A stretch of DNA of 64,000 nt from Rikenellaceae bacterium (GCA_015060115.1 SUZB01000009.1:13260-77259); one strand, 5' to 3'; shown: positions 1,421 to 62,187, counted from the stretch's first letter. Notes: generated by a model not told the origin, from the letters alone. Numbers and translations: made by a program.

Positions 1421-3130
1421 CTACTCCAAGGCCTGCGAGATGTTGATGATAAAATCACCCATTCGCTCAATCTCCGATACGGTGTCGAGGTAGTATACCG
1501 AGTTGCGGTAGTCGCCCTCGCCACGGTCGATGCGGTAGATCTCCTCCTCACGCAAGGTGTTGCGTAGCTCGTTAATCTCAATCTCGCAGTCGGTAGCCAA
1601 GCGCAAGTCGATAGACTCGAAGTGCTCAGCCTTGAGGTTCTCGATCATCACCTTATATGCGCGGTCTACACGGTCGAGCATCTTCTCGATATTTGCAACC
1701 TGCTCCGCAGAGAACTTCTGCTGGTGCGAGTTACGGCGAGTGAGGATGCGGCTCACAGCCTCGCCCGAGTCGCCAAGGCTCTCCAACTCACCAATAATCT
1801 TATACATACGCTTAGCCTCGGTGCGTGTATCCTCCGAGATGCTATCCTCGGGCAGGGCATTGAGGAACTGCGCAATCTCATACTCTATGCGGTCAGAAAT
1901 CTCCTCGTACTTAACTAACTTAGCACACATCTGCTCGAACTCCTTGTCGCTCTTCGCATTAACAAGCTGGCGAATGTAGCCAAGGCCGTTGCGCGAAATC
2001 TCGGCAAAGTGGATAACCTCGTTGCGTGCCTGACCGATAGCGAGCTCGGCAGTCGAGAGAGGGCCGGCATCGATAAACTTAAGCTTCACTGTATCCTCCT
2101 TATCGCTCTTCTTATCCTTGATAACGCGCTCTACAATCTTCACGATAACGGGCACAAACCAGATAAGGATAGCGGTATTGAAGGTGTTGAAGAGTGTGTG
2201 GAGCATCGAGACACCGTAGAGTGTTGACATACTCTCATCGGCAGTCATTGCAATCTCCGACGAGTGAACAATATCCATTGGGTTGGGCAGACCAAGCCAA
2301 GTGATAACCGTACCTACAAGCATCAGGAAGGGGCGGAAGAGAGCAAGCGCCCAGCATACGCCAAAGAGATTGAAGAGCGTATGTGCCATTGCTGCACGGC
2401 GTGCATTGGCGTTACCTACGGCAGCTGCGATATTTGCAGTGATTGTTGTACCGATATTCTCGCCGAGCACCATCGCAGCACCCATCTCAAAGGGTATCCA
2501 GCCCATATTCACCATAATGAGCGTTAGCGCCATTGTTGCAGATGATGACTGCAACACAAGGGTCAATACCGTACCGAAGACAAGGAAGATAAGCACCGAG
2601 CCAAAGCCATAGCTTGTCCAGTTCTGGATAAATGCCAGCACCTCGGGGGTCTCCTTAAGGTCGGGCACCGACTCCTTCATCAGCGAGAGGCCGAGGAAGA
2701 GGAGCGAGAAGCCTACGATAAGCTCCGAAATGTGGCGACGCTTATCACTCTTCGAGAGGCTGAGGATAAAGCCCACGGCCATAAGGGGCACAGCAAAAAG
2801 CGAAATATCGGCCTTGAAACCGAGCAACGACACAAGCCATGCCGTAACGGTTGTACCGATATTAGCACCCATAATCACGCCTACTGCCTGCGAGAGGGTG
2901 AGTAGACCCGCATTTACAAAACCTACCGTCATCACGGTAGTTGCCGAAGACGACTGAATTACCGTAGTGATGCCAAGACCTGTAAGCACGCCCTTAAAGG
3001 GGTTTGAGGTCATTGCAGTAAGCATACCTCGCATCTTACTACCTGCAGCCTTCTGGAGGCCTGCGCTCATAAGGTTCATTCCGTAGAGGAACATACCGAG
3101 AGCGCCAAGAAGTGTCAAAATTTGTAACAT
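1421..3130 (-). CDS. Na+/phosphate cotransporter family protein (NptA/YjbB-like) with C-terminal PhoU-like domain
   Basis: Duplicated QSSSAT motifs, GANIGTT and GENIGTT, many TM segments, helical soluble C-terminus ending ERMGDFIINI. Confidence 0.92.
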   Translation of the reverse strand: MLQILTLLGALGMFLYGMNLMSAGLQKAAGSKMRGMLTAMTSNPFKGVLTGLGITTVIQSSSATTVMTVGFVNAGLLTLSQAVGVIMGANIGTTVTAWLVSLLGFKADISLFAVPLMAVGFILSLSKSDKRRHISELIVGFSLLFLGLSLMKESVPDLKETPEVLAFIQNWTSYGFGSVLIFLVFGTVLTLVLQSSSATMALTLIMVNMGWIPFEMGAAMVLGENIGTTITANIAAAVGNANARRAAMAHTLFNLFGVCWALALFRPFLMLVGTVITWLGLPNPMDIVHSSEIAMTADESMSTLYGVSMLHTLFNTFNTAILIWFVPVIVKIVERVIKDKKSDKEDTVKLKFIDAGPLSTAELAIGQARNEVIHFAEISRNGLGYIRQLVNAKSDKEFEQMCAKLVKYEEISDRIEYEIAQFLNALPEDSISEDTRTEAKRMYKIIGELESLGDSGEAVSRILTRRNSHQQKFSAEQVANIEKMLDRVDRAYKVMIENLKAEHFESIDLRLATDCEIEINELRNTLREEEIYRIDRGEGDYRNSVYYLDTVSEIERMGDFIINISQALE

Positions 3131-3160
3131 AGTTTATATAGTTTTGTAATTTTCACGACA

Positions 3161-3222
3161 CAAAAATATAGAGCAATAAAAAATCGTGCAATAGCAAAAA
3201 CGAAATGTAACGGATTTGTAAC
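3161..3222 (-). promoter_or_regulatory. Bacteroidetes -7 element with a putative Pho-box-like direct repeat upstream
   Basis: TATTTTTG on the minus strand at 3161-3168; TGTAAC-N5-TGTAAC (11-bp period) at 3206-3222. Confidence 0.45.
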
Positions 3223-3259
3223 ACGATTTTATCGGGAATGAAAAAAGGGAAAGGAGCTA

Positions 3260-3723
3260 TTAGTTATTAGTTGTTAGTTGTTAGAGTTTTTTAGGACCAG
3301 TAAGACCAATAGGACAAGTAGGACTATATGATACCCGACCTCGTAAGGTCCTAAGGTCTTAAGGTCCTATCGGTCTAAAAAAAACGAGAGCAAGCGTTTC
3401 GCCTGCGGGCTAAAGCCCAAGGGGCACAAGGATTCTGAGGGGTCAAAGGGGCGCATTAATAAAGAGAGTTTAGTGAAATTAGGGAATTTAGAGAAGTTAG
3501 GGAAGAGCACTACCAACATTTATCCCTAACCTCACTACACTCCTTAAACTCTCTAAACTCCCTTATAAACCTGCATCCAGTCAGCACACAGCCAATTTCT
3601 TGTCAGAAGGGGCTTAATTTGGATTATCGCAAAAGAATCCCCCAAGGGATAGTACACCTTAGTACAGCCCTTGGGGGATTACTTTTGGGATAGTTCGAAG
3701 GATGCCCCTTATCACAAGAAATT
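3260..3723. repeat. Composite intergenic mosaic: heptamer array, A, B, C and D modules
   Basis: Each module recurs in other spacers of this window (6680-7027, 11806-12227, 17845-18111, 38104-38322, 42196-42507, 53301-53749). Confidence 0.85.
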
Positions 3724-3725
3724 AA

Positions 3726-4424
3726 TTAGTCGCGGTTACCACCCAAAATACGCAACAACATTAGGAATAGGTTGATAAAATCGAGATACAAGGTGAGCGC
3801 ACCAAGAAGAGCGAGCTTATGACCACTCTCATCGGCAGTGCCATACTGCAAGAAGAGTTGCTTAAGCTTCTGGGTATCCCACGCTATAAGGCCGGTAAAG
3901 ATCACCACACCCGCATAAGTCGTTATCCAGTAGATGGTTGATGACTTAAGGAAGATATTGACAACGGTGGCGATAATAAGGCCTATAAGGAGCGTATAGA
4001 GCAGACTGCCCATACGCGAAAGGTCGAGGCGTGTGATATAGCCCACAAGGCTCATAGCGAGGAAAGTGCCCGCAGTAACAAAGAATGTGGTGGCTATGGT
4101 CTCGCCTGTATAGACGAGGAAGATGGAGGAGAATGTAACACCCGTAAGCACCGAATAGAGGATAAATAGGAGTGTTGCCGTGCCCATCGACATCTGCATA
4201 ACGCGCGCCGAGAGCCACAACACAAGGCCCAACTCCGCAAAAAGAAGAATCCATATTGATGCGGGGTTCATAAAGATATACTCAAGGATAGCGGGCGACG
4301 ATGCCACAAACCAAGCCGTAAGACCTGTTACGGCAAGGGCTGCCGCCATCTGAATATAGACGCTCTTAAACAAGCGACCTACAAGCGCATTCGAGGCGCT
4401 CTGTGCTGAAGAGAACTCAATCAT
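3726..4424 (-). CDS. Bax inhibitor-1/YccA family membrane protein
   Basis: Seven hydrophobic segments; C-terminal ALTLYLDFINLFLMLLRILG motif. Confidence 0.92.
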   Translation of the reverse strand: MIEFSSAQSASNALVGRLFKSVYIQMAAALAVTGLTAWFVASSPAILEYIFMNPASIWILLFAELGLVLWLSARVMQMSMGTATLLFILYSVLTGVTFSSIFLVYTGETIATTFFVTAGTFLAMSLVGYITRLDLSRMGSLLYTLLIGLIIATVVNIFLKSSTIYWITTYAGVVIFTGLIAWDTQKLKQLFLQYGTADESGHKLALLGALTLYLDFINLFLMLLRILGGNRD

Positions 4425-4440
4425 AATCCTAATATTTTAG

Positions 4441-4512
4441 TAGCCCCTCCGGGACTCGAACCCGGATTTAAGGTTTAGGAAACCTTCGTTCTATCCCTTG
4501 AACTAAAGAGCC
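4441..4512 (-). tRNA. tRNA-Arg(CCT)
   Basis: Reverse complement folds as a cloverleaf: anticodon arm AAGGT-TTCCTAA-ACCTT, T-arm CCGGG-TTCGAGT-CCCGG; CCA not encoded. Confidence 0.95.
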
Positions 4513-4767
4513 ATTCGAAGATACAAATATAGTACATTTTTTCTTTTTTTCAAAGAGTAATGGAAAAATTGGACTCTTTATAGGTATAAAGACCCATTAG
4601 TATACTATACCATATTACAATTAGAAAATTTTAGGCCAATAATTTCACCCTCGCAAATATAGTATATTTAGTTATTAGTCAAGCATATAGGTAAACATCG
4701 TGTCGATTAACGCAAAAATTAAGAGTAGAAAATCGGTTGAATATTTCCGTTGGTAGCAAAAATTTTG

Positions 4768-4863
4768 TACCTTTGCCCCCGAAACGATGGTGATACAACA
4801 CTATCCTCTAACTGCGAAATTTCGTTTCAGGTGATACAACCAAATTTCTATTTTGTATCTTTG
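4768..4863 (+). promoter_or_regulatory. Two tandem -7 elements upstream of the acyl-CoA ligase, flanking an 11-bp direct repeat
   Basis: TACCTTTG at 4768-4775 and TATCTTTG at 4856-4863; GGTGATACAAC at 4789 and 4830. Confidence 0.5.
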
Positions 4864-4928
4864 TAACGATAATGTGCCGAAAGAGTACCCACAAGGACGA
4901 CAAATATTAACTATACATATATTATATT

Positions 4929-6629
4929 ATGTTGGAGCAAAACCTTATTAAGATCTACGAGCAGAGCTTCCGCGACAACCGCGAGATGGCTGCTATTACC
5001 GACTATTTCAAGGGCGAGACATTCTCGTACTACGAAATGGCCAAGGAGATTGCCAAGTTACACCTTATGTTCAAGGAGGCTGGCGTAGAGAAGGGCGACA
5101 AGATTGCGCTTATCGGTCGTAACAACACCCGTTGGTGCATCAGCTACATCGCCACAATCACCTATGGCGCTATCATCGTGCCTATTCTCCAGGACTTCAA
5201 CCCCAACGATGTAATCAACATTATCAACCATTCGGAGAGTAAGCTCCTATTCTTGGGCGACAACTTCTGGGACGATATTGAGGGCGAGCAGATTCCCGCT
5301 ATCGAGGCGGTATTCTCGCTTACCGACTACCATGTAATCTATGAGAAGAGCGGCGACAAGCTCACCAACTATATGAAGAATATCGTGATGCACTACCGCG
5401 ATGCCTATCCTCGTGGTTTCAGCGCCAACGATATCAAGTATGCCGAGGTTGCCAACGACGAGGTTTGCTTGTTGAACTACACTTCGGGCACCACCGGCTC
5501 ATCTAAGGGTGTTATGCTTACCGTAAACAACCTTACAGGTAACATTCTTTTTGCCCGAGAGATGATTAACCCCGACACCAACGAGCACTTCTTCCGCAAG
5601 GGTGCACGCACACTCTCGTTCCTCCCCTTGGCACACGCCTACGGCTGTACCTTCGACTTCCTCTCGCCCTTGGCGTGCGGTGGCCACATCACCCTTTTGG
5701 GTCGTATCCCCTCGCCCAAGATTTTGGTCGAGGCGATGAAGGTTACCCGTCCCAATATCGTATGCTCGGTACCTCTTATCCTTGAGAAGGTATACCGCAA
5801 GAGTATTCTTCCCCTCTTGGAGAAGGGCCCTATGAGCATTGCGATGCGTATTCCGTTGATTAACACCGCTATCTACTCTACTATCCGCGCTAAGCTTATG
5901 GAGCAGTTTGGTGGTTGCGTCGAGATTTTCATCGTGGGTGGTGCAGCTCTCAACAAGGAGACCGAGGATTTCTTGCGCAAGATTAAGTTCCCCATCACCG
6001 TGGGCTACGGCATGACCGAGTGCGCTCCGCTTATCAGCTTCGAGCTTCCCCAGTACTTCAAGTCGGGCTCGTGTGGCCGTGTGCTTGATGGCTTGTTGGA
6101 GGGCAAGATTGACTCGCGCGACCCTCAGAACATTCCTGGCGAGTTGCTTGTTCGTGGTGAGCATGTAATGAAGGGCTACTACAAGAACGAGGAGGCTACA
6201 AAGGCTGTTTTGGAGGAGGATGGCTGGTTACACACTGGCGATATGTGTACTATGGATGCCGACAAGACCATCTATATCCGAGGCCGTTGCAAGACTATGA
6301 TTCTCACCGGCTCGGGTCAGAATATCTACCCTGAGGAGATTGAGGAGCGCCTCAACAACCTCTATATGGTTGCCGAGTCGTTGGTTATCGAGAACAATGG
6401 TCGTCTCACAGCGCTTGTCGTGCCCGACTATGAGTTGGCAAATGCCGAGGGTGTTAACCTTGAGAATATCCAGGAGATTATGGACGAGAACCTCAAGCAG
6501 CTCAACACTATGGTTGCTTCGTATGAGAAGGTTGCCAATATCGTAATCCACCGCGAGGAGTTTGTTAAGACTCCCAAGCGCTCGATTAAGCGTTACTTGT
6601 ATAGCGCTGAGCGACTTAACCTCAACTAA
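4929..6629 (+). CDS. fadD: Long-chain fatty acyl-CoA ligase (AMP-binding family)
   Basis: YTSGTTGSSKG P-loop, GYGMTE, GWLHTGD and RGRCK adenylate-forming motifs. Confidence 0.88.
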   Translation: MLEQNLIKIYEQSFRDNREMAAITDYFKGETFSYYEMAKEIAKLHLMFKEAGVEKGDKIALIGRNNTRWCISYIATITYGAIIVPILQDFNPNDVINIINHSESKLLFLGDNFWDDIEGEQIPAIEAVFSLTDYHVIYEKSGDKLTNYMKNIVMHYRDAYPRGFSANDIKYAEVANDEVCLLNYTSGTTGSSKGVMLTVNNLTGNILFAREMINPDTNEHFFRKGARTLSFLPLAHAYGCTFDFLSPLACGGHITLLGRIPSPKILVEAMKVTRPNIVCSVPLILEKVYRKSILPLLEKGPMSIAMRIPLINTAIYSTIRAKLMEQFGGCVEIFIVGGAALNKETEDFLRKIKFPITVGYGMTECAPLISFELPQYFKSGSCGRVLDGLLEGKIDSRDPQNIPGELLVRGEHVMKGYYKNEEATKAVLEEDGWLHTGDMCTMDADKTIYIRGRCKTMILTGSGQNIYPEEIEERLNNLYMVAESLVIENNGRLTALVVPDYELANAEGVNLENIQEIMDENLKQLNTMVASYEKVANIVIHREEFVKTPKRSIKRYLYSAERLNLN

Positions 6630-6632
6630 GAG

Positions 6633-6678
6633 AATCAAAGGAGATGACTAAAAAGAAAATTAGTCATCTCCTTTGATT
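6633..6678. terminator. Bidirectional terminator-like hairpin, family G copy 2
   Basis: AATCAAAGGAGATGACTAA-N8-TTAGTCATCTCCTTTGATT directly after the fadD stop. Confidence 0.8.
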
Positions 6679-6679
6679 T

Positions 6680-7027
6680 TAGTTGTTAGTTATTAGTTTT
6701 TAGTTGTTAGAGTTTTTTTTTAAGAGCAGGCGTTTCGCCTGCGGGCTAACGCCCCAAGGGGCAAAAGAAGAGCGAATTTAGAGAGATTAAGGAATTTAGA
6801 GAAGTTAGGGAGTGCGCTACCGACATTTATCCTTAAGCTCACTACACTCCTTAAACTCACTAAATTCCCTAATAAAGCACCTACGGCTCTGCACGACCCA
6901 ATTTGTTGTCAAAAGGTAGTAGATACAACGCTCGGCAAAAAAATGCGGATGGGCTGTACTTTGGCGTACTGCTCATTCGCATTTATTTTTGTTAGCGGCA
7001 GTAGATGCTGCCTTTTCACAACAAATT
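6680..7027. repeat. Composite intergenic mosaic: heptamer array, B, C and D modules
   Basis: Modules match those at 3260-3723. Confidence 0.85.
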
Positions 7028-7397
7028 AAAAGGGCATATCGTCAATCACTCCTGCACCCCCTGCCGAATAACTCTGCTGGGGCTCCTCCATAAAGGGAGG
7101 CATATCCTGCACAGGAGGCTGTGCTGCAGGCTGGAGAGGCTGTACACGCCAAGCACGAACATCGGTATACCAACGACCCTGATAGTTGCGGCTCTCGATA
7201 TCGAATGATACGGTGTACATCTCACCTACGCGGAGTGTAGCAACCTCCTGACCCTTATTCATAAAGGTTACGGCTATCTCCTTGCCATACTGCTTGTTGG
7301 GTTGCTCAAAAACAACGGTCTGACGCTCCCAAGTACCGCGTGCCGACTGACCCGACACAGGAGGGAGAATCTCAATTACTTTACCTTCAAATTCCAT
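7026..7397 (-). CDS. DUF3127 family protein (putative OB-fold ssDNA-binding protein)
   Basis: MEFEGKVIEILP...FDIESRNYQGRWYTDVRAWRV pattern; low-complexity linker and acidic C-terminus DDMPF. Confidence 0.85.
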   Translation of the reverse strand: MEFEGKVIEILPPVSGQSARGTWERQTVVFEQPNKQYGKEIAVTFMNKGQEVATLRVGEMYTVSFDIESRNYQGRWYTDVRAWRVQPLQPAAQPPVQDMPPFMEEPQQSYSAGGAGVIDDMPF

Positions 7398-11767: not shown

Positions 11768-11805
11768 AAATGCAAAGGTACAAAAAAAAGAGCAAAAAGC
11801 AAAAT

Positions 11806-12227
11806 AGTTGTTAGTTATTAGTTGTTAGTTGTTAGATTTTTTTAGGACCAGTAAGACGGGTAGGACAAGTAGGACAAAATGATACCCGACCTCGTAAGGT
11901 CTTAAGGTCCTACGGTCTTAATGGTCTTAAAAAAGACAACAGAGACGCAGAGACGCAGAGACGCAGAGATAACAGAGAAAGATGATAGCCGACTTCGTTG
12001 TTGTCCCTTTCGTCTCTTTCGTCTCTTTCGTCTCTTTATCCCTAACCTCACTACACTCCTTAAACTCACTAATAGATTTGCATCCAGTCAGCACTCTGCC
12101 AATTTCTTGTCAGAAGGGGCATAATTTGGCGCCGATAAAGAGAAAGAGCGGATGGGACATACTTGGCGTATTTCCCATTCGCTCTTTAGATTGAGGCGCC
12201 GAAGGATGCCCCTTATCACAAGAAATT
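11806..12227. repeat. Composite intergenic mosaic: heptamer array, A, E, half C and D modules
   Basis: A core at 11881, related core at 11984, D arms at 12101-12120 and 12208-12227. Confidence 0.85.
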
Positions 12228-12648
12228 ACGAGAAGTTCTCGGATTGTGAGGCCACCTCCTCCTCCATCTCATTCTGCATCTCCACCATCTGCACAATATC
12301 CTCGGCACGGCTGGCGCCACCCACAGTAACAACCATATTCCACTGCACCTGAATCTGCACAATGCCGTTCATCACCGACAGCGTTCCCATAATCTTGTTC
12401 TCGGGGGCGAGGATAACGACACCATCGACATCGGTATACTCGGCAAAGAACTGTGTGGCAATCACCACATCGAAGATTGAGGGTATGGTGCGAACAACGA
12501 TATTCTGCTGATGACAGCCCATCGCGAGAAGATTGTCGATAAGCGGCATAAGGTGCTCATCGGTATGCTCTTTGAAGTCGCGCACAACGATAACACCAAT
12601 ACGCATATTGGTAGCATCCAATTCGTTACGCAACATGGGCTCCATCAT
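12226..12648 (-). CDS. Degenerate lumazine synthase (RibH)-like protein, probably non-catalytic
   Basis: MRIGVIVV...NIVVRTIPSIFDV...DVDGVVIL follows the N-terminal half of the RibH fold; the GxTxH and RxGxKxGNKG motifs are absent; position next to TPR/recF/DUF721. Confidence 0.65.
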   Translation of the reverse strand: MMEPMLRNELDATNMRIGVIVVRDFKEHTDEHLMPLIDNLLAMGCHQQNIVVRTIPSIFDVVIATQFFAEYTDVDGVVILAPENKIMGTLSVMNGIVQIQVQWNMVVTVGGASRAEDIVQMVEMQNEMEEEVASQSENFS

Positions 12649-17703: not shown

Positions 17704-17844
17704 AAAGATAAATATTTGGTTAAAATTCGTTATTGCCTGCTCAGCTATAAAACTATCCAATTGTAAATTGATGTCATTTCAACTTACAAACATAGTAACA
17801 AATTTTGTTTTTTCCAAAAATTGGGTGCGATTAGGTAAGAATGG

Positions 17845-18111
17845 TTAGCTGTTAGTTATTAGTTGTTAGAGATTTTTTTAAGACGAGTAAGACAAGTAGG
17901 ACAAATAAGACATAGTATGATACCCGACCTCGTATTGGTCCTAAGGTCTTATCGTCTTAATGGTCTTAAAAACTCTCTGCGCTCCCCCCAGGAGCGCATC
18001 TAACAACTAATAACTAATAACTAACAACTAAAAAAGAGCGAATGGAATACTCAAAATATCCATTCGCTCTTATCGCTTAGAGGTCGCAATGGCCTCTTAT
18101 CACAACAAATT
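17845..18111. repeat. Composite intergenic mosaic: heptamer array, A, inverted heptamer array and half D
   Basis: A core at 17919; CTAACAA array at 18000-18031; terminator hairpin at 18034-18071; stop-adjacent arm to 18111. Confidence 0.8.
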
Positions 18112-18583
18112 ACCTTCTATTGTTCTTGGGCGCCTCCTTGCCACTGGCAGCCTGAGCCTCAGCCTTGACGCGAGCAATCTCCGACTTGGCCTGAGCTACA
18201 CGGCTCTTGTGGTCCTCAACGATAGACTTGGTCTTAGCCTTGGCAGCAGCAACCTCCTGCTTGGTGCGGGCAGACTCCTGCTTGTAGCGCTCGGTAGCCG
18301 ACTTAAGCTCGGCCTTGGCCTTAGCAACACGAGCCTTCTGCTCCTCGACAACGCGGCGATAGTTCTCCTTAACCTCCTGAAGGTCAGACTTTACAAGATT
18401 AAGACGGCTCTCGGCAGCATCAACTGTAAGACGCTCCTCCGACTTAGCCTCCTCAACAGCACGGCGCTGGTCGATAACGGTGTTGTCGTAGAGTGCCTGA
18501 GCCTCAGCGATGGTGCGAGGCGACTGTGCCGAAACGGCGCTCACTGCGAGGAGCGCAACGATAGTAAACAAGAATTTCTTCAT
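18110..18583 (-). CDS. Secreted coiled-coil protein with three ~43-aa repeats
   Basis: Signal peptide MKKFLFTIVALLAVSAVSA-Q; Ala/Lys/Glu-rich; VEEAKSE, VAKAKAE and VAQAKSE spaced 43 aa apart. Confidence 0.8.
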   Translation of the reverse strand: MKKFLFTIVALLAVSAVSAQSPRTIAEAQALYDNTVIDQRRAVEEAKSEERLTVDAAESRLNLVKSDLQEVKENYRRVVEEQKARVAKAKAELKSATERYKQESARTKQEVAAAKAKTKSIVEDHKSRVAQAKSEIARVKAEAQAASGKEAPKNNRR

Positions 18584-38097: not shown

Positions 38098-38103
38098 AGG
38101 AGA

Positions 38104-38322
38104 GAGCAGGCTTTCGCCTGCGGGCTATGCCCCAAGGGGCAAAAGGGTTCAAAGGGAAAAAAGGGGTGGTAAGGTTAGCAGGAGTCTTGATAGTCTTACC
38201 CACCTTGAGGTTAGCACGCACGCTCTATCTCCCCTTGTGCCTCTTGTGCCCCTCAGCTTCAGCTGGCGCTCCCCAGAGCGCAACTCTAAAAACTAAAAAC
38301 TAACAACTAGCAACTAACAACT
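38104..38322. repeat. Composite intergenic mosaic: B module, AAGGGG/CCCCTT-type arms and inverted heptamer array
   Basis: GAGCAGGCTTTCGCCTGCGGGCTATGCCCCAAGGGGC matches 3388 and 6724. Confidence 0.75.
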
Positions 38323-38489
38323 CTCACCTATATCGGGGATAGTTCATTTTTTGTGAGCTACCCCCGTTTTGTTTGCTCATTTAGATTTTTTTTGTAACTT
38401 TGCAAAAATATGTGCGCATGTATATGCGTGCGTGGTTGCGCGCGTAGCGTGTGCAACGGAGCAAACGATAACAAATAAAACGCAATAAT

Positions 38490-42157: not shown

Positions 42158-42190
42158 AAAGGTCTACTTCCGCTTTAGGAGTAGACCTTT
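42158..42190 (+). terminator. Intrinsic terminator of wza-wzc-HAD
   Basis: AAAGGTCTACTTC-N7-GGAGTAGACCTTT followed by Ts. Confidence 0.8.
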
Positions 42191-42195
42191 GATTT

Positions 42196-42507
42196 TAGTT
42201 GTTAGTTGTTAGATATTAGTTGTTAGATTTAGGACCAGTAAGACGATAAGAAAAAATTGTGATACCCGACCTCGTAAGGTCTTAAGGTCTTAAGGTCCTA
42301 AGGTCCTAAAAAAATCCTAAAGTCCTAAAGTCCTAAGGTCTTATCGGTCAAAAACAGAGAAAATTTCATAGAAAACGCAGTTAAGGCAATCAGCCCTCCT
42401 TGAATCCTCCCTGAACACACACCTAAAATAAATGACGGATGTGAGATACTCAAGTATTCCCATCCGCCATTCTAACTAAAGCTGACGCACCTATATCACA
42501 ACAGATT
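42196..42507. repeat. Composite intergenic mosaic: heptamer array, expanded A and half D
   Basis: A core at 42261 with an expanded run of GTC(C/T)TAA(G/A) units; hairpin at 42431-42471; stop-adjacent arm to 42507. Confidence 0.78.
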
Positions 42508-53302: not shown

Positions 53303-53468
53303 AGTTGTTGGTTGTTAGAGATGCGCAGAGCTATTAAGACCATTAGGACTTTAAGACCTTAGGACTTTACGAGGTCGGGGATCATATTTCTTCTTAATGG
53401 TCTTACTCGTCTTATCGTCTTATGGTCTTATGGTCTTATCATCTTAATATCTCTAACAACTAACAACT
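53301..53468. repeat. Inverted A module bracketed by heptamer arrays
   Basis: ACGAGGTCGGGGATC at 53369-53383 is the reverse complement of the A core with one change. Confidence 0.8.
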
Positions 53469-53749
53469 CTCTCGGTCATTCTGAACGAAGTGAAGAATCT
53501 ATCGGTTAGTAAGACCATCGACTGCCCACAAAACCTTGAGATCCTTCGTTGCACTCAGGATGACACCCACTAACAACTAATAACTAACAACTAACAACTA
53601 AAAACTAACAACTCTCTCGGTCATTCTGAACGAAGTGAAGAATCTATCGGTTAGTAAGACCATCGACTGCCCACAAAACCTTGAGATCCTTCGTTGCACT
53701 CAGGATGACACCCACTAACAACTAATAACTAACAACTAACAACTAAAAA
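53458..53749. repeat. Perfect 145-bp tandem duplication carrying a 90-bp REP-like hairpin (F)
   Basis: GTCATTCTGAACGAAGTGAAGAATCT...AGATCCTTCGTTGCACTCAGGATGAC at 53475-53564 and 53620-53709. Confidence 0.92.
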
Positions 53750-53800
53750 TTAACCACTCTACTTGCTTATTTCGCTGATTTTTTATAACTTTGTGCTATA

Positions 53801-55538
53801 ATGGATAGTGTGTCGAAACTCGCAGAGCGTATGGGTGGAATTAGAGAGTATATAGCTAATGCGTTGGGCAGCCGGGGGGCAATATCGCGGTGCGGTTGTC
53901 TGGGTGCTATTGTGGCGTGTATGTTCGTGGCGGTAGGTTGCGCCACAGATAAGCGGAGTGCGGAGCTTATCGCCTATGCCGAGGAGATTGCAATGGAGTT
54001 GCCCGACTCGGCGCTAAGGGTGGTGCAGAGCATCGACCCTGAGAGTGTGCGCGGCAGGCACGACCGAGCACACTATAAGCTCGTTGTTGCCGAGGCGCAC
54101 TACTATCGTGATTTGATTCCCAATCGAGACTCTATCGCTCAACCGCTGTTCGACTACTATATTGAGAGCGATAACCACGCCGAGCGTGCTCGCGCACTAT
54201 ATCAGCACGCCCTTGTTATGCAGGCCGAGGGCGAGAATGCCCGTGCTATGTTCTCGCTTTTGGAGGCCGAAAAGTCGCTTTCGCACCTCGACAATCCTCG
54301 CCTCTTGGGTCTTGTGCATCGCACAATGGGCGAGATTTATGGTGCAGAGTGTCTATTCCAAAATGCTTTGGAGGAGTATCAGAAATCAAAGGAGTATTTT
54401 GATAAGGCAGAGTTACCTATTCATAGTGCATACGCCACCTATGACATTGCAATCATTTATAATAGAATGCGCGATTTTGAAGCAGCAATTAAGATGCTTT
54501 TGATTGCTGAAGATGAATTTGGGAGGCTTAATGAATATGGACATATGTTTGACACTCAAATTGAGTTATGCTATAACTATATCCAGCTGAATGATTATTC
54601 AAATTGTAGAAATATATTTAATAGGATAAAAACTCATAATTTAAACACTTATAGTCTATGTGATTATTATTGTATATCTGCAATACTATCTGCTATAGAT
54701 GGCAATTTAAATCAAGCTTATCTTCTATTAAACAGGGCAAAACAAGAATTAATAATCAATCCAATGCAACTTGCATATGCTGAATATATAATTATTAGGT
54801 TGCAAGGAAATGATACAGAAGCCTTGAATTTTCATCTGCAGATGGTTGCTGAACAAGATAAATTCGTCTTTAATGCTATAAATAACTCTTTGCTGCAGAG
54901 TCAGGTTGATTTGTTATCTGACCAAGTGGCAAGCACTAAGGAGATTCAACAGAAGACTCGTTTTATAAATTATCTACTCACAATACTGTCCGTGGGTATT
55001 GTGCTAATATTTATATATTATATAAAGGATAAACAACATAAGCACAAAGTGGAGATAGCACAAAGTATGGCGATAGCATCAGAACTTCGCAATATTCTTA
55101 CACTTAAAGATAGTGAGATTCTAAGTCAGCAAAATATCATAGAGCAGCTCTTTGCTTCACGCTTCGACACTATTGATAAGCTAAGTTGTGCCTATTTTGA
55201 GGCTCAAGGCTTTAATAACGAGAAGCAGAGAATCTATCGTGAGGTCTCATCTTTGATTGATGATATTAGTTCCGACAAAAAAAGCAATTAAGAGGATGGA
55301 GGATTTTGTGAATACCTACAAAGATAACCTAATGTTAAAATTCCGTTCTTCAATTCCAAATGCTACGGAAGATGATACGCAACTTTACTTATATATGGCA
55401 CTTGGTTTCTCACCTCGCGCTATTAGTATATTTATGAAGAAGAGTGTAGATGCAGTCTATAATCTTAAATCTCGACTGCGTCATAAGATAATAAAAAGTA
55501 ACTCTCAATATATAGAAATACTTCTCGGCGTGTTGTAG
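53801..55538 (+). pseudogene. TPR-TM-HTH membrane-anchored regulator split by a +1 frameshift in an A7 run
   Basis: ORF 53801-55291 ends SSDKKSN*. The overlapping +1 frame continues KKAIKRMEDFVN...GFSPRAISIF...VYNLKSRLR (LuxR-like HTH). Removing one A from 55277-55283 fuses them. Confidence 0.75.
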
Positions 55539-57808: not shown

Positions 57809-57956
57809 AGAGTAAAATATTTAGGATTTGTACCTAACTAACGCCTAAGACAGACGGGATATTGTGCGGCACAGCAAGTTGTGCTTGGCCCAAGCATTGT
57901 ATCAGCAGAGGAGGGAGTGGGCCATAAGATAGGGATTGAGCGGCGCAACTACAAAG

Positions 57957-58040
57957 AAAATACCGAGGGACTGTAACATTACAACCCTCGGTATTTTACC
58001 TTTTGGATAGACCGCAGATGCGGCTTTATCACAAGAAATT
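57957..58040 (-). terminator. rpsT terminator plus stop-adjacent D arm
   Basis: AAAATACCGAGGG...CCCTCGGTATTTT; TAATTTCTTGTGATAAAGCCGCATC begins at the stop codon. Confidence 0.8.
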
Positions 58041-62097: not shown

Positions 62098-62129
62098 GGA
62101 GATGACTAAAAAGCAAATTAGTCATCTCC
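62098..62129. terminator. Bidirectional terminator-like hairpin, family G copy 3
   Basis: GGAGATGACTAA-N8-TTAGTCATCTCC. Confidence 0.75.
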
Positions 62130-62187
62130 TTTAGTTTAAGTCATTGATTTATCCGTTAGGTGCAAGCACCCACAACAGCCTTTCTTT

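Follow-up and report, generated by a model that had tools for sequence, protein, structure and literature searches.

Repeats of the REP/REPIN, ERIC and Correia families are well studied in Proteobacteria and Neisseria. The stretch of DNA analysed here (the window; 64,000 nucleotides of Rikenellaceae bacterium, GCA_015060115.1 SUZB01000009.1:13260-77259) contains three full copies and two half copies of an inverted-repeat element, designated D, that is comparable to these families. D lies at the 3' ends of genes or operons, in a single orientation; its stems are maintained by compensating changes, and it is on the strand complementary to the mRNA (the template strand) that pairing is constrained. 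The interpretation tentatively preferred, with slightly less than an even chance of being correct, is that D belongs to the REPIN/ERIC/BIME class of palindromic intergenic repeats, as a non-autonomous member that carries a terminator, is exchanged at the DNA level and is constrained on its template strand. It is filed as a palindromic repeat, but in no named family: it lacks the defining features of REP elements, of MITEs (miniature transposable elements with inverted repeats) of the DDE type and of attC sites, and it is separated from ERIC by description, not by alignment to the ERIC consensus. D is distinguished by its exact stop-codon register, strict gene-relative orientation, many covarying subfamilies, replacement between strains and template-strand constraint.

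D resembles REP/REPIN-RAYT systems in being a long, non-autonomous intergenic hairpin with conserved arms, a variable middle, compensating changes and a strand-specific constraint, in having a short conserved tag or tail by the hairpin foot and no target-site duplication, in occurring both as singlets (the half copies) and in arrays, and in lying near stop codons and terminators. Unlike REPINs, D is larger (127 nt plus the tail), its arms are not REP palindromes and bear no GTAG or CGTC tag, and it has a T/AA junction with the stop codon, a fixed orientation, a terminator-like core and a folding strand that is mostly the leading-strand template; no cognate RAYT was found in the 0.96 Mb of sampled loci. 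ERIC (IRU, 127 bp) and YPAL elements are likewise imperfect palindromes of near-equal size that lie in transcribed sequence between genes, often directly against stop codons, and De Gregorio et al. in 2005 reportedly found that the effects of ERIC on upstream mRNA depend on orientation. D presumably has no sequence similarity to ERIC. ERIC has one consensus and a TA target duplication, whereas D has many covarying subfamilies and no duplication, and the strand-asymmetric wobbles and terminator-like core belong to D. The Correia (NEMIS) and RUP/BOX elements, which can be terminators or RNase III targets, share with D a size of approximately 100-150 bp, terminal inverted repeats and hundreds of copies at gene ends, but Correia and RUP elements have TA duplications and a parent insertion sequence (IS) family, and are without covarying subfamilies, strict orientation or stop register. 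As with the BIMEs of E. coli, D is one of several hairpin modules in intergenic mosaics that vary between strains, although the other modules and the taxon differ and the partners of BIMEs are IHF and gyrase. The E. coli REPs located within 15 nt of a stop codon are said by Liang, Rudd and Deutscher (in 2015) to cause ribosome stalling and tmRNA tagging; D is similar in that a stable hairpin is predicted to start within the footprint of the terminating ribosome, but the sense-strand hairpin of D is the weaker one.

A two-arm pattern scan over species-representative genomes identified D in at least 115 stretches from approximately 55 metagenome-assembled genomes (MAGs), which among the matches listed comprise 113 stretches of Alistipes (source MAGs from ruminant and human guts), one of Rikenellaceae and one labelled only Bacteroidetes. 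The listed stretches yielded 131 pattern copies of 123-133 nt, in which the invariance of C11/A12 and T119/C120 was imposed by the search pattern; a search with an nhmmer profile recovered 162 full and 46 partial copies from 0.9 Mb, among them many tandem arrays of two to five, and 131 of the 162 full copies found in this pattern-free manner still fit the pattern. None of 4227 Rfam models matched at its gathering threshold (the best, ssNA-helicase RNA, scored 20.6 bits against a gathering threshold of 41.5), D was not found in IMG/VR contigs, GenBank phages and PLSDB plasmids, and a full-text literature search found no description of such an element in Alistipes or Rikenellaceae. The preliminary description of the window, made from its sequence, had proposed an uncharacterised family, and both the narrow range of the matches and the Rfam result agree with this.

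The register of D with respect to stop codons is exact. The TAA codon consists of the T of a long open reading frame (ORF) and the AA of the element in 69 of the 131 copies, and lies one base further upstream in another 12, often giving TAATAA. An ORF of at least 50 codons ends within 30 nt of approximately 90% of the copies, and several of the 14 copies without one are inner members of arrays. The ORF enters the same arm every time, and both orientations of D are found inside single 8-kb stretches (L059, L109), tracking gene direction. In the window, genes on the - strand precede all five copies, with the TAA formed by the gene's T and the first two bases of the element in four cases and the stop codon 2 nt from the arm in the fifth (copy 1), in agreement with the contacts previously noted for the DUF3127, RibH-like and YccA-like genes. 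Arm motifs with at most three mismatches number seven to eight in the window, where 0.1-0.15 would be expected, and none of 100 shuffles reached this count. As the preliminary description had observed, no target-site duplication is evident: the flank logos (..ACCC to the left, A to the right) contain no direct repeat. D is asymmetric because its conserved tail is on the far side only; this C-rich tail of approximately 25 nt, of the type AAAC...AGCACCACGACCC, lies 5' of approximately 70% of the non-tandem copies on the + strand (the strand antisense to the gene), with the motif ..GCACCACGACCC at the hairpin foot and neither GTAG nor CGTC there. Sequence conservation ends approximately 25 nt upstream of D on the + strand, with no conserved promoter. 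Orthologous sites in other species that have no palindrome keep an identical T, the stop codon being TAG or TAA, and in some of them a tail-like G-rich motif is found directly at the stop codon; a fuzzy search for tail motifs outside D returned mostly coding-region noise and few usable cases of a tail at a stop codon (T/AG).

In the gene-strand direction, D consists of a 20-nt proximal arm that starts with the AA of TAA after the stop codon's T, stems P2 and P3, a core hairpin, the mirrored stems, the distal arm and the tail. The basal stem P1 has 10 bp (AATTTSTTGT/ACAASAAATT); beyond it is a symmetric internal loop with C·C and G·A mismatches and no bulged extrahelical bases. Between P2 and P3 is a tandem G·A (AGAT opposite AGAT), with A-rich and T-rich bulges as well, and the core stem is G+C-rich (commonly ..GGATGGG/CCCATTC..), with an apical 4-bp stem that contains an invariant TAC...GTA. 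Full copies 1, 2 and 3 of the window are folded end to end into hairpins of approximately 60 bp each, with minimum free energies (MFE) of -75.5, -64.9 and -74.5 kcal/mol on the + strand (z-scores of -11.1, -9.7 and -12.6) and -65.3, -47.0 and -65.9 kcal/mol on the - strand. On recheck, the coordinates, 20-bp arms and lengths that the preliminary description gave for these copies were exact, and its two observations on the arms were seen again: both arms of copy 2 are changed together (C-G to G-C at position 6; GGGGC/GCCCC to GGTAG/CTGCC), and a C·C mismatch at arm position 11 is common to the three copies.

The continued pairing of stems that differ in sequence, which the preliminary description had noticed among three copies, is real in the alignment of 131. 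Standard pairs occupy 94.7% of cells, compared with 76% when partners are shuffled and 42-51% when they are slid; the covariation score is 0.49 versus 0.16, and none of 500 shuffles scored as high; and double-sided changes occur in 25 of the 39 pairs. Arm position 6 is C-G in 73 copies, G-C in 54 and mismatched in four.

The two strands of D are not equivalent. In the window's full copies the + strand, which is antisense to the genes beside them, has its wobbles as G·T, and what the preliminary description had seen there is general across the 131 copies: 577 G·U pairs were counted in their MFE folds in the + orientation and 52 in the gene-sense orientation. The mean MFE is -69.6 kcal/mol on the + strand versus -55.8 kcal/mol on the - strand, a difference of 13.8 kcal/mol; the + strand is the stronger in 121 of the 131 copies, and with DNA energy parameters it is the stabler in 129. 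With the consensus structure held fixed, G·T pairs outnumber A·C pairs by 160:22 in P2, 244:26 in P3 and 119:19 in the core (4-9:1 in each helix), or approximately 8:1 overall on the gene's antisense strand. When copies are clustered at 80% identity the ratio is 155:20, and the asymmetry is found in 36 of 37 clusters. The tandem G·A (AGAT/AGAT) is favourable on the + strand only, and other hairpin modules of the same intergenic regions do not have the asymmetry. Known mutational asymmetries of transcription and replication are in the opposite direction and far weaker, which argues that pairing of the strand complementary to the mRNA is under selection; mutation bias was dropped as a cause of the G·T excess for this reason. 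The spectrum of mismatch repair, as what decides which mismatches persist, was dropped because it is inconsistent on either strand.

D has been replaced and rearranged between strains as well as between species. Orthologous gene ends of different species have different D subfamilies at the same nucleotide. At ribH, where the protein is identical and contigs are 98.8-99.0% identical over 1.9 kb, D differs along all stems (at approximately a quarter of positions, an uncomputed estimate by eye); pairing is kept in all stems, the tail is different as well, and the replacing copy is near-identical to one behind another gene in a roe-deer MAG. At the DUF3127 gene, ten strains with an identical protein and flanks 97.2-98.2% identical have intergenic regions of 271-570 nt, in which a common arm at the stop codon is followed by differing full copies, half copies (of the same type as the window's half copy at 18030-18111), tandem arrays or hybrids. 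The crossover points of the hybrids lie in the conserved apical block. At yccA, identical strains carry identical copies, and one contig (L135) departs exactly at the distal arm, so that its tail is changed though D is identical; elsewhere the tail changes together with the D subfamily. The divergence of L135 may be a rearrangement or an assembly chimera. At rpsT, a 15-nt arm is retained at the stop codon where the downstream sequence, terminator and next gene of contigs differ. Because short-read assemblies break and may mis-join at D repeats, reliance was placed on independent MAGs and on contigs reaching into unique sequence on both sides.

The neighbourhoods of D also vary among contigs. 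L135 (1829-2470) is near-identical to L134 up to the D arm, after which yccA is followed by L33, L28 and DUF4295 genes in one and a Na/Pi cotransporter in the other. Similarly, the neighbourhoods of L139, L142, L145 and L148 and those of L140, L141, L143, L144, L146 and L147 part at the D arm after rpsT, with a TPP-riboswitch-like leader and thiD-like kinase versus a SIMPL-domain gene by set. These switches at arms could be rearrangements or assembly chimeras. Tandem arrays of two to five D elements of mixed subfamilies are found at L011:3516-4029, L039:6714-7227, L018:2369-2627 and L001:4421-4673, where neighbours share a self-complementary AATT or are joined by AAACA-like linkers, and short units of a solitary left arm plus tail precede some full copies (L019, L080, L081, L063).

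The core stem has an A-run on one side and a T-run on the other, so that a T-rich tract follows the stem in both directions (a mean of 4.8 T in the 8 nt past the stem in the gene direction and 4.4 in the antisense direction), and by its shape it appears to be a bidirectional intrinsic terminator. The half copies consist of the proximal arm, a terminator-like hairpin and a T-run; a separate hairpin with a D-like apex stands alone after another gene; and the D copies of the window are at operon ends. A simple terminator scan flags copy 1 alone, its loop limit missing the D cores. The RNA data are assembled metatranscriptome contigs, which are strandless and whose unitigs are broken at the arms; in these, the ratio of repeat depth to gene depth is similar in RNA runs and DNA runs. 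Three other functions considered for the arm were rejected: for an internal promoter of the Bacteroidetes type (TAnnTTTG) the arm lacks one base or would require a TA that only approximately 8% of copies have, a peptide translated by read-through into the arm has no conservation of a coding type, and segments of the arm that match the 3' end of 16S rRNA are not colinear.

In the preferred interpretation, D would serve its host as an operon terminator or insulator, possibly bidirectional. Copies would persist and spread at the DNA level, through insertion or replacement where they meet the stop codon and through recombination with one another. It is the template-strand hairpin that would be constrained, recognised or favoured as single-stranded DNA (ssDNA), and the agent could be a strand-specific enzyme, for which the best precedent is a Y1/HUH RAYT-like transposase, or replication-linked hairpin dynamics. 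A more specific and rather doubtful proposal is that D is the substrate of a strand-specific system of folded-ssDNA recombination or transposition, RAYT-like or attC-like, that docks on the first base of the stop codon; we know of no such system described in Bacteroidota. The well-folding strand is on the C-rich strand, and therefore usually on the leading-strand template, in 53 of 68 loci after removal of the coding-strand effect (p = 4e-6; regression intercept -0.031). A RAYT subclass particular to Bacteroidetes, 2.6, has 'atypical secondary structures' (PMC6006769).

Several observations weigh against the preferred interpretation. Neither a Y1/HUH nor another transposase was found in the 0.96 Mb sampled (by regular expressions and tblastn, with IS200/IS608 TnpA queries), and no arm pair flanks ORF-sized cargo in the same loci, a sample into which a single-copy gene would seldom fall. 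The lack of a target-site duplication counts against it too. The folding strand is mostly the leading-strand template, the opposite of the preference of IS200/IS605-type elements for the lagging-strand template, although this bias may merely reflect the leading-strand bias of the adjoining genes; the template strand is, moreover, the strand least exposed in transcription. The terminator function of the core is read from its shape, and the distal arm is seemingly absent from RNA for copy 1 and abundant for copy 3, which is contradictory. The persistence of the 15-nt arm at rpsT hints at a role of its own in mRNA or as a binding site, for which the model has no explanation. Some of the mosaic might result from chimeric assembly at repeats, L135 being a candidate case, and no pair of filled and empty sites was seen among near-identical strains, the empty sites being from different species only.

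Exchange between copies might need no dedicated machinery at all. Terminators could be homogenised by homologous recombination, gene conversion, unequal crossing-over and quasipalindrome template switching, with covariation of the arms as a by-product of arm-to-arm copying. Such concerted evolution would fit the hybrid crossovers in the apical block and arms, the growth and shrinkage of arrays between strains, the identical subfamilies at unrelated loci, the terminators with a D-like apex that stand alone, and the failure to find a transposase, target-site duplication or cargo in the sampled sequence; it is nevertheless unlikely, as it leaves unexplained the 8:1 asymmetry of G·T over A·C, the exact T/AA junction in more than half of the copies and the first arrival of D at many unrelated stop codons, and arms of 20 nt are short for RecA-dependent exchange. 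If the + strand were transcribed, from heterogeneous promoters or by convergent or divergent read-through, D could instead be a structured antisense RNA that acts as an RNase III substrate, a roadblock to antisense transcription into the gene or a cis-antisense regulator of its 3' end. G·U pairs make up 10.5% of + strand pairs, a share typical of structured RNAs, and are the majority state at positions 29-115 and 57-89; there is conservation in the internal loops and the apical TAC...GTA; and both arms of copy 3 are present in the metatranscriptome contigs. An antisense RNA is, however, quite unlikely: conserved information, including any promoter, ends so close upstream of D, the core hairpin and T-run would end the transcript before the second arm, the depth of the repeat relative to single-copy genes is not higher in RNA runs than in DNA runs (DNA carry-over could explain it), and no Rfam family corresponds to D. 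That D acts on the sense strand, as an element of the 3' untranslated region whose stop-adjacent arm, stems and terminator function in the mRNA and link the end of translation to that of transcription or to mRNA decay, as do the E. coli REPs located within 15 nt of a stop codon, is decidedly unlikely. The proximal arm is always co-transcribed with the gene and has the stop codon built into it, half copies retain exactly the arm and the terminator, and the 15-nt arm remains at the rpsT stop codon (post-stop context UAAU) despite the changed downstream sequence; yet A·C and C·U mismatches lie on the sense strand, whose fold is weaker by approximately 14 kcal/mol, selection on that strand predicts the opposite asymmetry, and the distal half, as a mere DNA mirror, would be left with no reason to pair.

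Two more explanations invoke known recombination enzymes. A folded single-strand site like the attC of integrons, at which a tyrosine recombinase exchanges 3' modules or downstream DNA at stop codons, is very unlikely. The attC sites of integrons, of which the VCR is reportedly approximately 123-129 nt (properties taken from accounts attributed to Bouvier in 2009 and Loot in 2017), resemble D in size, in conserved arms around a variable centre, in unpaired bases near the arms (C·C and G·A in D), in their position at ORF stops and in a bottom-strand fold antisense to the ORF; the folding strand of chromosomal integron attC sites is on the leading-strand template, as it mostly is in D, and synteny or sequence breakpoints occur at the arm ends of D. 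D differs from attC in having no match to the R''/R' consensus (RYYYAAC/GTTRRRY) or to an L box, and in having symmetric mismatches instead of extrahelical bulges; no integrase was seen nearby; and the neighbours are not cassette arrays but housekeeping or core genes (rpsT, ribH, yccA-like, DUF3127) with promoters and conserved synteny that, unlike integron cassettes, are parted by long intergenic regions. The preliminary description had offered a MITE or a structured RNA family. The uncharacterised family stands, but a strict MITE is not shown, as neither a transposase with matching ends nor a cargo version was found in the sampled loci, target-site duplications are lacking, and near-identical strains gave no pair of filled and empty sites. 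A classical cut-and-paste MITE, derived from an IS of the DDE type (such as IS630 or IS5) for which the 20-bp terminal inverted repeats are the recognition site, is highly improbable: the inverted repeats, the small size, the many copies and the AATT shared by tandem copies would suit it, but the flanks (..ACCC on the left, A on the right) exclude TA or TTAA duplication, the orientation relative to genes is strict, the interior diverges and yet pairs, the strands are asymmetric, and no IS with these ends is present in the 0.96 Mb sampled.

The copies of D in the window and the genes that end at them are listed in Table 1. The half copies, the tandem arrays, the asymmetric 5' tail, the terminator-like core and the strain-variable mosaic are additions to the preliminary description.

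Table 1. D copies, their 5' tails and the adjoining genes in the window (CM, covariance model).
Feature	Coordinates (strand)	Details
Full copy 1, 130 nt	3594..3723 (+)	Arms 3594-3613 and 3704-3723; core hairpin and its adjoining A/T runs 3630-3687; CM score 106 bits
Full copy 2, 128 nt	6900..7027 (+)	Arms 6900-6919 and 7008-7027, with compensating changes; core 6936-6991; CM score 98.9 bits
Full copy 3, 127 nt	12101..12227 (+)	Arms 12101-12120 and 12208-12227; core 12137-12189; CM score 129 bits
5' tail of copy 1	3567..3593 (+)	AAACCTGCATCCAGTCAGCACACAGCC; C-rich motif class ..GCACnnnnCC, present 5' of most copies
5' tail of copy 2	6874..6899 (+)	AAAGCACCTACGGCTCTGCACGACCC
5' tail of copy 3	12076..12100 (+)	ATTTGCATCCAGTCAGCACTCTGCC
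Half copy	18030..18111 (+)	Terminator-like hairpin 18030-18075 and gene-proximal arm 18092-18111; distal arm lacking
Half copy	57953..58040 (+)	Terminator-like hairpin 57953-58006 and gene-proximal arm 58020-58040; distal arm lacking
Bax1-I/YccA-like gene	3726..4424 (-)	Stop codon 3726-3728, 2 nt from the arm of copy 1
DUF3127 gene, last of five co-directional ORFs	7026..7397 (-)	TAA 7026-7028, composed of the gene's T (7028) and the final two bases of the arm (7026-7027)
DMRL-synthase (RibH-like) gene	12226..12648 (-)	TAA 12226-12228 overlaps the terminal TT of the copy 3 arm
157-aa ORF	18110..18583 (-)	TAA 18110-18112 overlaps the half-copy arm
rpsT (ribosomal protein S20)	(-)	TAA 58039-58041 overlaps the half-copy arm

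Other repeats are found in the intergenic regions of the window. Runs of the heptamer TAGTTGT (CTAACAA on the opposite strand) are located at 3244-3302, 6670-6728, 11795-11853, 17829-17873 (with an inverted partner at 18000-18050), 38272-38336, 42172-42230 and 53556-53765; they border intergenic modules and pair with one another across modules, and their period of seven places a stop codon in all frames of both strands. The heptamer TAACTGA repeats of Beggiatoaceae are a possible analogue (PMC4679880). A 145-bp unit in tandem duplicate (53453-53742, 99% identity) adjoins heptamer runs upstream of an ORF at 53801..55291(+). A second hairpin module (3283-3383, 11834-11934, 17861-17973, 42221-42357) is made of 9-mers (TAGGACNNG) paired with 8-mers (TAAGGTCY) around a conserved loop (TGATACCCGACCTCG), and its strands, unlike those of D, fold approximately equally. 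A third, in which GGGAGTTTAGAGAGTTTAAGGAG... pairs with ...CTCCTTAAACTCTCTAAACTCCC and the repeat number is strain-variable, lies beside the D tail (3455-3570, 6770-6880, approximately 12039-12075), and a G+C-rich module (AGAGCAGGCGTTTCGCCTGCGGGCTAA.GCCCCAAGGGG) is repeated within the mosaics at 3387-3424, 6723-6760 and 38102-38139.

Terminators in this genome come in repeated families, since a second terminator family, GGAGATGACTAAAAAG.AAATTAGTCATCTCC, recurs 10-24 nt past the stop codons of + strand genes (1250-1293, 6640-6683, 62098-62141). The hairpin with a D-like apex (CCGCAGTTTACTTAGGCGTAAATGAGG), at approximately 1330-1375, is downstream of an ORF at 1421..3130(-) and has no Rfam match; it has the top depth in the metatranscriptome contigs (3000-5000, versus 20-60 for genes).

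D provides an unusually clean data set, combining dozens of subfamilies, covariation, a stop-codon register, an orientation rule and a strand asymmetry, which makes it directly testable whether such a repeat is constrained as RNA or as ssDNA and whether it is selfish or domesticated. D probably marks operon ends and is thus relevant to the annotation and engineering of these gut bacteria; its repeats fragment short-read assemblies of Alistipes, and the strain-variable 3' ends could be used as strain markers. If a folded-ssDNA system does act on D, Alistipes strains would swap terminator or 3' untranslated region cassettes, and sometimes downstream DNA, between genes and genomes, and the location of the folding strand on the leading-strand template would restrain this activity, as in chromosomal integrons.

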